Source: a virus. Taken from it: a stretch of 64,000 nucleotides of DNA. The notes beneath the pieces were generated by a model. That model was not told the origin of the DNA. It saw only the letters and a program-made list of their open reading frames with translations, and did no database searches. Both the position numbers and the translations under genes were made by a program. This document shows, piece by piece, positions 58,485 through 63,500 of the stretch; position 1 is the first letter of the stretch; every line of letters begins with the position of its first letter. Location of the stretch: the IMG/VR virus record IMGVR_UViG_3300042462_000689, one strand, 5' to 3'.

Positions 58485-60779
58485 ATGACTTCTGCAATTC
58501 TTCCAACTCTTCTCGCATCCGGCGCTGGCGCCGCCGGCGGTCAATTCCTTCACGGCGGCAGCGGCTGGCGTCGCGGCGCAATTCGCGGTGCGGGTGCCGG
58601 CCTGGGTGCCACAGCGGGCGCGACAGGAGCATCAATGCTGGCTTCCGCATTGGGTGCCGGTGAAAATACAGATTCCATCGCGCGCCTGATCGGTGCCCTT
58701 GGCGGCGGCTACGGTGGATATTTGCTATCCCGCAAATTCACCAAAACCCCCGGCGAGGATGCCAAGGATCAGATCGACGCTCATCAGAAAAGGGCCAATA
58801 CCGAATCGGGTGGTGAGTCAGCCCTGCTCAAATACCTCCACAAAGGACTGGGATACATTCCCAGTGGGGTGGGCGGTGCCGCGGCCATTGGTGCAGGACT
58901 TGGTGGTATTGGGGGCATTGCGAACTCCGGTATGCTGCCAGGTGCGGTGCGCGGAGGACTGGCAGGAGCTGGATTTGCTGGTGGTGGTCTCCTTGGGGAC
59001 TTCGCCAATGACGCCATGGGCGTCAAGAATCCATTGCTGCGTATGGGTATTGGGGCAGGCAGCCGCCTGCTCGGTGCGCACACAGGATACACGCTCGGCA
59101 AGAAGCTCACCAAGACCCGCAAGGAGCAATTGGATGACGCTATGTACGAGTGGTACAACAATGCCAATGCGGGTCTCAATGCGCCGCCGGGAATGAAGAT
59201 GGCCAATGCCGACGGAGCCATTCCAAAGCCGATCGCGCCGATTTCGACTGTGCCTGGAGGTTTGGGGGGAGCCCCAAAATCCACGCCATCTTTTACTCCA
59301 CAGCCGAAGGCACCGCAGTCTACACCGACGCCTCCAACCGGACCGTCTAATTTTGCCGCACCATCGCGCGTGCCGAATGCCACAGCGGAGCGGCAGGCAA
59401 GGCTTAACAAGGAGTTTGGTGGGATGCGTCCAGGCAATCCGCTCGGCGACTCGCGACCCGATCCACGCCCCGGCGCGGTTCGCACGCTTACCCCGCAGGG
59501 GAACGGACAAACCTGGACGACAGAGGTTCCGCGGGTGAGCGATGACTACGATCGTATTGTACGCGGAATTCAGGATCGCCGGCAGGCGGCCCGAGATAAG
59601 GCCTACGCCGACAGCCTCACAACTGGACAGCAACCAACACCTGAAGGGCGGGCGGCATGGCATAAGGCACGACCAGTCAATTTTGAACAAGAGATGCGCG
59701 ATGTGCGCGCGGAGGCCGATAAGGCAGCTGGGCCGCAAGCCCAGACATGGGCGCCAGTAATTCCTACCGCCCTGACGCCAGAGCAGACGCAGACCATGAT
59801 CGGACGGCCTCACGCCTACAACGGCATGATCATGCCGGATGGCTCGCTGGGCTACGCCACCCCCTCCGATGAGCAGGTAGCCGCGCTCAACGCCCAGCAG
59901 CAGATGCGCCAGCACCAGCAGGCGCAGGCCGCGCTCGTGCAGCGACACCCCGAACTCGGACAGGAAGGCACTCCAGAGCACACCGCGTTCGTCGCAGCCT
60001 ACAAGGCGCAGAAGGCCGAAGGCAAGACGCCGGACATGAATGCCATTGCGCAGGAGGTGTACGCGCCGAAAGCCCAGACACCCGCGCCGTCGGCGACACC
60101 ACCAGCGACACCACCAGCGACACCACCGGCGACACCACCGGCGACACCACCGGCGACACCACCAGCGACACCACCAGCGACACCACCAGCGACACCACCG
60201 GCGACACCAGCAACACCGCCTACGGACGTTCTGGATACGAAGTTCGTGGAGGGCTCCGGGCTGTACAAACCTCAGAAATTTGACTACGACGAGGCGCAAG
60301 AGGTCACGGCGGGGCGTTTCGCGGACCAATCCCCGGATAGTGCTGGGGCGGCAATTCAGAGGGCTTTCTTGGATAAAGGGGAGTTCCATAAGGCGGACCG
60401 CCAGGTGGCGCAAGTGCGCGAAAAACTGACGGCGGCCCAGGCCGGGTTAGCAGAAGCCCGCGATGCGGGTAATGGTCCAAAAGCAACAGAGGCTCTAAAA
60501 GCCATCAATTGGCTAAAGTCATTGGAATCCGAGCTTAAAAAGAGGCATGCTTACCATGCCAGGAGCTTGGCTGCCAATCCCATGGCGCCGACGCAGCAAT
60601 CCGATACCATGCCTAGCGCACAATCCATATGGGAGAACGCACGGGCCGTCAAAAAGGGGCTGGCACCTGGCGCGTATGATGGATCTTTTGGATACCGCCC
60701 AGATTTCCTGGAGGCGCATCTTCCCACATGGCTGCAGGCAAGCCAGGACGCGCCCATACATCCCTCGGCGCCCGTTTAG
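58485..60779 (+). CDS. Gly-rich, Pro-rich putative internal virion protein
   Basis: Two glycine-zipper-like blocks (GAGLGATAGATGA; GAGLGGIGG...GAGFAGGGLLG), QKRAN and MKMAN motifs, ATPP tandem repeat. Confidence 0.55.
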   Translation: MTSAILPTLLASGAGAAGGQFLHGGSGWRRGAIRGAGAGLGATAGATGASMLASALGAGENTDSIARLIGALGGGYGGYLLSRKFTKTPGEDAKDQIDAHQKRANTESGGESALLKYLHKGLGYIPSGVGGAAAIGAGLGGIGGIANSGMLPGAVRGGLAGAGFAGGGLLGDFANDAMGVKNPLLRMGIGAGSRLLGAHTGYTLGKKLTKTRKEQLDDAMYEWYNNANAGLNAPPGMKMANADGAIPKPIAPISTVPGGLGGAPKSTPSFTPQPKAPQSTPTPPTGPSNFAAPSRVPNATAERQARLNKEFGGMRPGNPLGDSRPDPRPGAVRTLTPQGNGQTWTTEVPRVSDDYDRIVRGIQDRRQAARDKAYADSLTTGQQPTPEGRAAWHKARPVNFEQEMRDVRAEADKAAGPQAQTWAPVIPTALTPEQTQTMIGRPHAYNGMIMPDGSLGYATPSDEQVAALNAQQQMRQHQQAQAALVQRHPELGQEGTPEHTAFVAAYKAQKAEGKTPDMNAIAQEVYAPKAQTPAPSATPPATPPATPPATPPATPPATPPATPPATPPATPPATPATPPTDVLDTKFVEGSGLYKPQKFDYDEAQEVTAGRFADQSPDSAGAAIQRAFLDKGEFHKADRQVAQVREKLTAAQAGLAEARDAGNGPKATEALKAINWLKSLESELKKRHAYHARSLAANPMAPTQQSDTMPSAQSIWENARAVKKGLAPGAYDGSFGYRPDFLEAHLPTWLQASQDAPIHPSAPV
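60093..60221 (+). repeat. 12-bp coding tandem repeat (ATPP x9 plus partial)
   Basis: GCGACACCACC(A/G) nine times, 60093-60200. Confidence 0.95.
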
Positions 60780-60840: not shown

Positions 60841-62013
60841 ATGACGAAACGAAAATTTTACAAGACCACGATCACGGTGACGGTGCTGAGTGAGGAGCCA
60901 CTTGAAGGACACCGACATTCCCTGGCGGACGTGGTATTTGGAATTACCGAAGGGGATTGGAGCGGAGAGTATGCTATAGCGGGCAGGCAGGAATTGAACG
61001 GCTTGCAGGCGGTAAATGAATTACTCCGGCAGGGTATCGACCCTGGATTCTTTCGCCTATGCGAACATGGGCATGACAATTACAGCGACGATGACGAGCC
61101 GGAGATCGCTGACGGCGCACCACCCACCTGCATCCTCACTGGAAAGCCCGGCGAAGACCCCGATGATTGCACGACCCACGAGCACGAGAAGCGTCCGTGA
61201 GGTATTTGGCACACCGTAAATAAACCCTTGCAATTGATTCCAATTGCGCTCAAATCAAATACGAAAGGATATAAATCCATGAAAAACAACAACATCGAAA
61301 ACAACTGGCTGCCATTGCCCGCCCCTGCTGGCGTAATTCCGACGCACTACATGGTCGGAGCCGACAAGGTGCCTGCAAGCGCCGATCCGCAACTGCTGCA
61401 GGACGCCACCCACTACTGCGTGGATTATGTGGAAGCCACACGCCCGGCCTACATCGGAGCGGAGGCGATGCCTGACATCGTCGGCCTCCCGCAGGTGCTG
61501 CCCCATGGCGGACACTCCGCAAAGGAGCAGGCCTTCTGGGCCTCCCTCGGCGTCGAAGTCTAAAGCCAGGCCGCCATCCAAAACCTTCACCAGATCCGGC
61601 GACGGGAGCAATCTCGTCGCCGGATTCTTTTTGACCAATGAAGGCAACAAGGGCCACCGAGAAACCAAAGACAATTGACGAAGTGGCAGGCAAGCCCGCC
61701 GGCTCCTTTGCCAAGTTTCTCACGGCACAAAACCGACTGATGGAAATGCAAGAGAGCGCACGGAAGCGACGCATCAAAGCAGCACGCAAATCAAGTGAGT
61801 AATTTCGACCCTGATGCACCCACCGCCCCATGTCACAGCGATTGGATATTGTACGCCCGCCGCTTGAAACATGAGCGGGACCAGGCGCGCAAAACAATTG
61901 AAAGTTTCGGCAGCTGGCTGGACCACTGGAGCCCCAAATGGGAAAAGAATCCGGCTGACGTATACGAGGCCTGGGACGAAGCACGACAACCTAAGAAAAC
62001 AAAAAACAAATGA
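60841..62013 (+). CDS. Accessory ORFs (60841..61200, 61279..61563, 61795..62013)
   Basis: Small + strand ORFs with A-rich start contexts. Confidence 0.5.
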
Positions 62014-62600
62014 CTGAAGAAAACGTAGCACCCCAATTCGACATCGGAGATCGCGTAACCAAGATCAAAGGCTCCAAATGGACGGGAATCATCGTCGGCT
62101 TTTACTGCACCGAATTGACACCCATCGGCTATGCCGTGGAGAGCGAGGCAGAGAAAGGATCGGTGCAGATTTATCCGGAGGCGGCGCTGGTCGCCCATCC
62201 GTGGCGCACTGCCGCGAGCGGGCGTGTCCTGCTGGAGCACACCAAGATCCCATTGATGGGTGACGCGCGTCCGCCATTGACGGTGCGTGTGGTGGATGAC
62301 TGTTTCGGGCTGACCGCGTTCTTACGCGTCCAGGAGCCCCCGACAAAGTCGGACCTAGACTGCCCGCAAGTCACGGTGGACTATTGCGAGGGGCGGCTTC
62401 AAATTCTCATTTACGAAGGAAACGACGCCCCCGCGGTGAGCATCCGTTTGCGCGACGGGAAGATCCATGAAGTGGCGGTTGCAAATGTCGGACGGGATGT
62501 CCGGATTCCTGTGGTGGATTTTGTGAAGGACACGGATTGGGACAAGAAGCCGTATCGTCCGATGAAGAAAACCAAAACCAAGGCCAAGAAAACCAAATGA
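62010..62600 (+). CDS. DfrB/R67 (type II) dihydrofolate reductase domain fused to an unknown C-terminal domain
   Basis: [51 protein letters not shown] is collinear with R67 DHFR, including the VQIY active-site motif. Confidence 0.88.
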
Positions 62601-63500
62601 GTGATCTCGTTGAGTTTAAGAATGCAGTAAAGGCCGCCGGGCTCAATCCGGACGAGATGTACGCGACAGAGATGTTCGTGCCGTCGTTCTGGCGAAAGAG
62701 CCAGTCGGAGGACTTCGACACAGCGCTCAAAGAGGGCGCTGTGTATCCCGGAGAACCGTGCGCAGGATACACCTGCTATGCGGATTCCATGACGAATGCG
62801 CGGGTTGCCGCGACGTGCATCGACAGCAGCTCGATCGAGAACGACCTTACGGTCAGGCTCGTCATCGACGGGGTGCTGATCGGGGATCTCGACATCAGGA
62901 GGTGCTTCTAATGAAAGCCTTCTGGATGGAGATGATGATACGGGACGGTGAAGGTGCGAATCACACGCACGAGCACCGCACTGACCGACACGGCATTTGC
63001 GTGCCGGTGTATTACGTGTGGCAGGAGTCTCCCGAGGATTTGCATGTGCAGATCCGAAGCGGAGGCGACAACCTGCGGCCGTGGTATTCGGACAAATGCG
63101 GGGACTACATCGTCCCTAACCCGTATGCCTGCGGCGGTTCGCTTGCGAGGTGCTACCACATCTCGTTCGCTGCCAATCCGGTTCTCGGGCTCGGTAGGGC
63201 TGATGAGGAATACCTACTCCGGCTGGAGGAGTTCTGGCCTTCGCCGAACTCTCCGCATTGGCCGGGAAGCAAGGAGGTCAAAAGCTACGAACGGAAGATT
63301 GCCGCCTACATCAAGAAAGGGAGGTCAAAATGAGCACTCTGGAGCAGCTCCGGGAAGAAGTGGTCAGGCTCCAATCGGAGAATGAGCAATTGCGGCGGGA
63401 GGTGATGCGGCTGCGAAATGAGGCCAATCAGCTGGGGTTGCTGGGTTACCCTCTCCCGCCGATCATACACCCACCGACGGCACCAGGGCCGCGCTGCTGA
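62597..63500 (+). CDS. Three accessory ORFs (62597..62911, 62911..63333, 63330..63500)
   Basis: Overlapped chain. Confidence 0.55.

Follow-up and report, generated by a model that had tools for sequence, protein, structure and literature searches.

A DfrB-type dihydrofolate reductase domain fused to an orphan, predicted beta-rich domain in a complete lake phage genome

A two-part DfrB gene and its product

A 64,000-bp stretch of the IMG/VR virus record IMGVR_UViG_3300042462_000689 (the window; bases 76271 to 140270 of the 185,656-bp record) was analyzed around a gene that an earlier note, made from the letters of the sequence, had described as a phage-borne DfrB (R67-type) dihydrofolate reductase (DHFR) domain fused to an uncharacterized part of about 135 amino acids. 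All three elements of that description were borne out. The open reading frame (ORF), at positions 62010 to 62600 on the + strand, was complete and encoded 196 amino acids plus a stop codon. Since the open frame spans 201 amino acids, the start codon lies close to the beginning of the frame. The ATG of the ORF overlaps the stop codon of a small upstream ORF (ATGA at 62010 to 62013), and the following ORF has an ATG that in turn overlaps the stop codon of the DfrB ORF (ATGA at 62597 to 62600).

Residues 9 to 60 (62034 to 62189, + strand) matched Pfam family PF06442 (DHFR_2) at 76.3 bits (E value, 1.7e-21; profile positions 23 to 74 of 78), above the family gathering cutoff of 25 bits. The R67 DHFR chains 1vie and 2rk1 aligned to the same residues without gaps (E value, 2.7e-17), and phrog_31682 also matched the domain. 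Identities to R67 DHFR numbered 36 in 52 aligned columns, or 36 of 51 across residues 10 to 60, exactly the count given in the earlier note. Across 48 core columns, the domain was 73% identical to dfrB1 translated from a plasmid record and 69% identical to DfrB2, DfrB4, and DfrB10; the corresponding tblastn identities were 70.6 to 72.5% and 66.7%. The NCBIfam resistance model NF000331 (trim_DfrB) gave 80 bits, against a curated cutoff of 137 bits.

The SH3-like domain was 69 to 73% identical to R67 DHFR (DfrB1). Lys18 (62061 to 62063, + strand) corresponds to R67 Lys32, which places a positive charge at the tunnel mouth and anchors NADPH and dihydrofolate (DHF) (PMC12486381), and Trp24 (62079 to 62081, + strand) corresponds to Trp38 of the dimer-dimer interface (PMC9835603). 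The YCT (Y32-C33-T34) and GYAVESE (G40-E46) motifs were kept, as were Ser65 (R67 numbering) and the tunnel-lining VQIY motif of strand B4 (V52 to Y55; 62163 to 62174, + strand). Glu48 (62151 to 62153, + strand) occupies the position of R67 His62 in the dimer-dimer interface. The retained motifs and this exchange, all reported previously from the letters, were seen in the alignment. In R67 numbering, the window protein has Glu62, Lys63, Phe45, and Thr39 in place of His62, Pro63, Trp45, and Gln39. It is also longer than R67 DHFR (196 versus 78 amino acids), its domain is N-terminal and lacks the disordered 20-residue leader of R67 DHFR, and its gene lies in a phage genome rather than in an integron cassette.

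Among the 81 nearest homologues, Lys32, Trp38, Gln67, and Tyr69 were invariant, and Ser65 and Ile68 were each present in 79; all six residues occur in the window protein. Published analyses found VQIY to be exclusive to cluster I of the DfrB family and Lys32 to be the most conserved residue, with the B4-strand tunnel motif following a nonpolar/polar/nonpolar/aromatic pattern (PMC12486381). The stretch E-K-G-S-V-Q-I-Y is common to the window protein and its close phage relatives. Glu62 was found in all 81 homologues, Phe45 in 79, and Thr39 in 76. Glu62 was also present in Sinorhizobium phage phiM9 gp002 and in Vibrio phage 1.030.O gp25, and the mutagenesis primer printed for DfrB-H5 in PMC9835603 decodes to E-S-E-R-E-P-G-S, that is, to Glu62. 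DfrB-H5 is a measured active tetramer (PMC9835603). The suggestion that Glu at the His62 position may alter tetramerization was therefore not upheld, as Glu62 is the norm of the environmental clade to which the domain belongs, this active tetramer included. The likely consequence of Glu62 is that the dissociation of R67 DHFR at pH 5, which His62 drives, would be lost or shifted.

Beyond the domain, residues 61 to 85 (62190 to 62264, + strand) form a linker that was the most variable stretch in the alignment with a 90%-identical relative and that had no regular secondary structure in either of two structure models. Residues 86 to 176 (62265 to 62537, + strand) form an orphan core. Two AlphaFold2 runs (one of the full-length protein and one of the C-terminal part with a two-row alignment) gave a predicted local distance difference test (pLDDT) score of about 40; at this low confidence, both runs predicted beta-hairpins at approximately residues 90 to 107, 120 to 135, and 141 to 157 and a seventh strand at residues 168 to 173. 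The motif D-x-P-x-V-[TS]-[VI]...[DE]-G recurs at hairpin starts, and the best 15-residue self-match scored 26, the 95th percentile of shuffled sequences, which is only suggestive of an internal repeat. The last 20 residues (177 to 196; 62538 to 62597, + strand) contain 10 Lys or Arg residues and 1 acidic residue, and no other plausible ORF in the genome has such a tail. The part of the tail at 62562 to 62597 is encoded by a AAAACCAA-type repeat. The three known relatives do not have the same number of T-K units, as would be expected from slippage.

No match to the C-terminal 135 residues was found in Pfam, NCBIfam, PHROGs, or PADLOC. An exhaustive phmmer search of 1.84 billion representative proteins returned only the protein's own cluster and one further cluster, P0121, a protein of 80-residue repeats whose E value summed an 18-residue match over eight repeats; this match was judged spurious. 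The ESM Atlas gave no usable feature hit for this part, and structural matches there had template modeling (TM) scores of 0.45 or less. A wide VIA-align search with the second AlphaFold2 model reached a best Z score of 4.4, below the stated noise level of the tool, so that no fold was assigned. A tblastn comparison found neither a paralogue of the C-terminal part in the complete phage genome nor a relative of it in 73 other DfrB-bearing viral loci. Four viral loci (L005, L006, L012, and L013) with tblastn matches extending beyond residue 100 were considered as further cases of the same architecture and rejected, as they are not alike there; in L006, the C-terminal part behind the DfrB domain is unrelated.

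The same two-part architecture was found in two further protein clusters from other lake samples, P0001 (194 amino acids; 97% identity) and P0002 (196 amino acids; 88% identity). The P0002 protein is encoded on a 22-kb contig of a separate ENA assembly that is syntenic with the window genome at about 90% DNA identity. Between the window and the approximately 90%-identical relative, the ratio of nonsynonymous to synonymous substitution rates (dN/dS) was 0.235 for the C-terminal part and 0.18 for its core, and 26 of 43 differences fell at third codon positions; the C-terminal part is thus under purifying selection, with a dN/dS of about 0.2. The SH3 domain differed by one residue, at its N-terminal edge. 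An independent 1,164-nucleotide contig, whose run carries no flag as a possible source, covered positions 61925 to 63088 without a difference and spanned the whole ORF. On the grounds of shared architecture, synteny, selection with a third-position excess, and this identical contig, the fusion is real.

Phage genome and gene content

The replicon was assigned to a phage because the IMG/VR virus record has direct terminal repeats and because the window contains a phage DNA polymerase and parts of a multisubunit RNA polymerase; the record is rated complete. An RNA polymerase piece shared about 32% protein identity with those of Salmonella phage Arash and Vibrio phage D69, the nearest cultured relatives, and megablast gave no match to a near-identical phage among GenBank phage records. 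The stretch was detected in 23 lake-water metagenome runs from 2020 to 2024, some of which are possibly the source sample.

Six-frame family searches of the complete genome found no ThyA-family, ThyX, or FolA gene. A Pfam scan of the 187 ORFs of at least 70 amino acids in the complete genome found no ribonucleotide reductase, dUTPase, dCMP deaminase, or folate or pterin enzyme. The absence of a ThyA-family gene is not exceptional for this clade, as such a gene was present in 5 of 46 DfrB-carrying viral records and in 3 of the 6 complete ones, and a published count found ThyA in 3 of 10 cluster-I viral genomes (PMC12486381).

The DfrB gene lies within a run of small + strand ORFs without family matches. 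A terminator-like hairpin, found by a consensus scan only (61593 to 61626, + strand; 15 pairs, of which 9 are G-C, followed by a T-run), separates an ORF of 111 amino acids from the DfrB gene cluster, and the DfrB gene is therefore probably near the start of a new transcription unit. Immediately after the DfrB gene comes a block of about 730 bp (window 62613 to 63343; genome 138883 to 139613) that contains two small ORFs and was missing at the corresponding place in L002, the 90%-identical relative. A segment of the block (genome 139134 to 139518) was found elsewhere in L002 (5670 to 6060) at 81% identity, and this displacement indicates shuffling of small genes among close relatives. Upstream, positions 58485 to 60779 encode a protein of 764 amino acids whose N-terminal part is rich in Gly and Ala and which carries about ten P-P-A-T repeats in tandem around residue 560; neither Pfam nor PHROGs gave a match to it. 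The complete genome also contained Pfam hits that are unusual for phages, including RRM_1 (E value, 9e-15), Bactofilin (E value, 2e-18), Fic/DOC, Acb1-like phosphodiesterase, NUDIX, HD_4, Pyr_excise, and a UDG-superfamily protein.

A D12-class N6-adenine DNA methyltransferase gene (genome 140494 to 141336), also kept in L002, lies just beyond the end of the window, 1.6 kb downstream of the DfrB gene. Because of this gene and of remarks in PMC9835603, a general association of DfrB with D12-class methyltransferases was considered. It was rejected for the one family that the comparison covered, PF02086, which occurred in 1 of 46 DfrB-carrying viral records and was 128 kb away in that record.

Relationship to other phage DfrB proteins

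The implied novelty of a phage DfrB fusion was overstated in the earlier note, as phage homologues, their resistance phenotype, and fusions have all been published (PMC9835603, PMC12486381, and PMC7265639). A 2020 study reported DfrB-like genes in viral contigs from freshwater (PMC7265639), and phage homologues were characterized in 2023 (PMC9835603). An analysis of 20 viral homologues, together with a number of domain fusions, followed in 2025 (PMC12486381), the year in which 8 dfrB-like genes were counted in lytic phages (PMC12466917). Several GenBank phage records are already annotated as R67 DHFR.

The closest phage relative was the 67-amino-acid protein gp002 of Sinorhizobium phage phiM9, annotated as hypothetical, with 78.6% identity by tblastn and 85% identity over the 48-column core. 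Unlike the window protein, phiM9 gp002 consists of the DfrB domain alone, without any C-terminal part, and phiM9 encodes a ThyA-family gene, whereas the window phage does not. Stand-alone phage DfrB proteins of 61 to 67 amino acids thus exist beside the longer forms.

Among the longer forms, DfrB-H4 (from a Vibrio phage) and DfrB-H3 (from a Pseudomonas phage) also carry the DfrB domain within a longer protein, with unrelated extra parts (PMC9835603) that have no similarity to the C-terminal part of the window protein. DfrB-H4 gives trimethoprim resistance in Escherichia coli (Lemay-St-Denis et al. 2023, PMC9835603). It is likely the same protein as Vibrio phage 1.030.O gp25, whose gene lies 1.9 kb from a DNA methylase gene; this identification rests on a matching description (a Vibrio phage, about 2 kb from a DNA methylase) and not on an accession. 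DfrB-H3 is probably the "dehydrofolate reductase" of Pseudomonas phage PS-1. The Vibrio phage protein has the E-K-G-S-V-Q-I-Y stretch in common with the window protein, but its domain is internal, with about 105 residues before it and about 60 after it, whereas that of the window protein is N-terminal.

The domain fusions described by Lemay-St-Denis et al. in 2025 (PMC12486381) include DfrB-TS and proteins in which DfrB is joined to an NTP pyrophosphohydrolase, ChaP oxygenase, N-acetyltransferase, or DnaA domain. The window protein resembles them in joining a DfrB domain of cluster I or II to another domain in a Caudoviricetes carrier without FolA. It differs in its partner, which is predicted to be all-beta and has no predicted function, while the unassigned partners in that study were mostly alpha-helical bundles, and in its genome, which lacks any thymidylate synthase. 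What is new here is the orphan, predicted all-beta partner with its basic tail, the N-terminal position of DfrB in such an orphan fusion, and a complete 186-kb genome with no recognizable nucleotide-synthesis gene alongside DfrB.

Many other IMG/VR loci (L018 to L060) represent dozens of DfrB-bearing viral contigs of 25 to 100 kb, estimated by CheckV to be 5 to 20% complete and apparently derived from phages of at least 300 kb; they share a DfrB domain about 65% identical to that of the window, and one complete record (G033) is 367,104 bp long. DfrB therefore seems to be common in a freshwater jumbo-phage lineage.

Dihydrofolate reduction and competing explanations

The most probable explanation is an enzymatic one, to which an overall probability of about 0.72 was assigned. 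The N-terminal 60 residues are a cluster-I DfrB domain, four copies of which would most likely form a tetramer like that of R67 DHFR. The central tunnel of the tetramer would hold NADPH and DHF and reduce DHF to tetrahydrofolate insensitively to trimethoprim. During infection, the cell would thereby gain extra capacity for DHF reduction, which would keep the host thymidylate synthase and the host purine and one-carbon pathways supplied during phage DNA synthesis, and the tetramer would display four lineage-specific beta-rich domains with their Lys-rich tails. That the domain tetramerizes and reduces DHF is highly probable in itself. The interface residues that the window protein has in common with tested homologues point to a DfrB1-like homotetramer. 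In the published set, 114 of 123 cluster-I and cluster-II homologues predicted to be tetrameric gave trimethoprim resistance, and the other 9 were not expressed (PMC12486381). Long DfrB proteins, one Vibrio phage protein among them, gave resistance with or without their extra domains (PMC9835603), and fusions with extra domains stayed active (PMC9835603 and PMC12486381). VQIY can be replaced without loss of assembly (PMC9835603 and PMC12486381). Because the tunnel residues are invariant although they are not needed for assembly, selection on ligand binding was argued.

Phage-encoded DHF reductases are also known from T4, in which frd, a FolA-type DHFR, works with td, so that a phage DHF reductase aids deoxythymidylate (dTMP) synthesis in DNA replication. 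The physiological logic proposed for the window protein is the same, namely, a DHF reductase supplied by the phage. The T4 enzyme has an unrelated fold, however, and T4 encodes its own thymidylate synthase and a deoxynucleoside triphosphate (dNTP)-synthesis complex, none of which is recognizable in the window phage. In the absence of a phage ThyA, a thymidylate role would run via host ThyA and host one-carbon metabolism. The proposal in the earlier note of an ancestral role in folate or thymidylate supply is accordingly plausible, and a published study had already put it forward for viral DfrB homologues encoded close to ThyA genes (PMC12486381); the genomic link itself is not visible here, as the ThyA, ThyX, FolA, and nucleotide-synthesis families are absent.

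Several observations weigh against the enzymatic explanation. With no folate or nucleotide-synthesis gene in the complete genome, no phage pathway visibly needs the product. The only RNA counterpart of the gene was one 151-nucleotide contig from a metatranscriptome library, covering positions 62084 to 62234, which may represent carried-over DNA and is not proof of transcription. Both structure models are of low confidence. Finally, the authors of PMC12486381 raise oligomerization as the native job of the domain in fusions.

The last point underlies the strongest alternative, which was nonetheless considered unlikely: that the DfrB domain is mainly a compact tetramerization module gathering four beta-domains and Lys-rich tails, with DHF reduction incidental and the beta-domain and tail carrying the actual function, for example, the binding of DNA, RNA, or a host protein. 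The proposal that fusions arose later because tetramerization favored them, and that the domain may natively serve protein-protein interaction (PMC12486381), is consistent with this, as are the lack of a folate-linked partner gene, selection on the C-terminal part at least as strong as that on the rest of the protein, and a tail with 10 Lys or Arg residues in 20 that is unique in the genome. Against it, the tunnel-lining residues, dispensable for the tetramer, are invariant or nearly so across the clade, and the existence of stand-alone phage versions of 61 to 67 amino acids indicates that the domain works alone in phages. As to what the C-terminal part does, tethering to nucleic acid or to a partner protein, or regulation, can be offered as a guess. 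One tentative elaboration, also improbable, is a four-armed hub in which the DfrB tetramer either anchors a folate-recycling enzyme on the phage DNA or on the replication machinery or forms a nonenzymatic assembly with DHF reduction as a by-product. If true, the tethering variant would be a minimal counterpart of the T4 dNTP-synthesis complex, and in either variant the C-terminal part would represent a new fold or family that is limited to a single lineage of lake phages.

It is very improbable that the tunnel instead binds or reduces a pterin other than DHF, in connection with phage DNA or nucleotide modification. In an unrelated viral contig (L012, 9504 to 10192), a DfrB gene of 61 amino acids overlaps, through ATGA, the stop codon of a gene of the PTPS/QueD family (PF01242, 6-pyruvoyl-tetrahydropterin synthase [PTPS]), and in L013 (3572 to 4380) a DfrB tblastn match directly follows the same gene. 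The R67 tunnel is, moreover, known to be promiscuous. Translational coupling of a pterin enzyme to DfrB hints that some phages use DfrB for more than dihydrofolate. The Pfam scan of the window genome, on the other hand, found no PTPS, GTP cyclohydrolase, or deazaguanine gene, and the published kinetics of the clade concern DHF.

Similarly remote is the idea, raised in the earlier note as a viral reservoir, that the gene is a mobile trimethoprim resistance determinant spread by phages or a source of the clinical ones. The domain is 67 to 73% identical to DfrB1, DfrB2, DfrB4, and DfrB10, and related phage proteins confer resistance when overexpressed in E. coli (PMC9835603). In a domain tree of 51 columns and 96 rows, with environmental rows picked for nearness to the query, however, these four sampled clinical alleles formed a separate branch with a Shimodaira-Hasegawa-like approximate likelihood ratio test (SH-aLRT) support of 99.9, opposite the window protein and 91 environmental and phage rows. 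The 80-bit score lies below the 137-bit resistance-model cutoff, and no integrase, transposase, or integron feature was found among the Pfam hits of the complete genome. Clinical alleles are single domains of about 78 amino acids in an integron cassette or mobile resistance context; the window gene encodes 196 amino acids and sits amid conserved phage genes that are syntenic in a relative. The published origin of clinical dfrB genes is in Burkholderiales chromosomes (Kneis et al. 2024, PMC11662351). The reservoir claim is not supported, given the separate clinical branch, the low model score, and this chromosomal origin. For resistance surveillance the result is reassuring, as the gene lies outside the clinical clade and below the model cutoff, in a phage without visible means of integration.

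The possibility that a run-on frame or a chimeric assembly accounts for the long ORF and that only its first 60 to 70 residues are made, for which the lack of homologues and the poor fold confidence of the C-terminal part might be cited, was tested and dismissed as practically nil on the recurrence of the architecture at 97% and 88% identity in other samples, on selection (dN/dS of about 0.2, with a third-position excess), and on the independent contig that spans the ORF without a difference.

The window gene adds one more natural, selected case to the published view of DfrB domains as old environmental and viral proteins rather than products of trimethoprim use. A complete large phage that keeps a DHF reductase without a thymidylate synthase weakens the simple interpretation that DfrB partners a phage ThyA. 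Two options are left, that the protein supports host folate cycling or that its tetramer serves as a scaffold.

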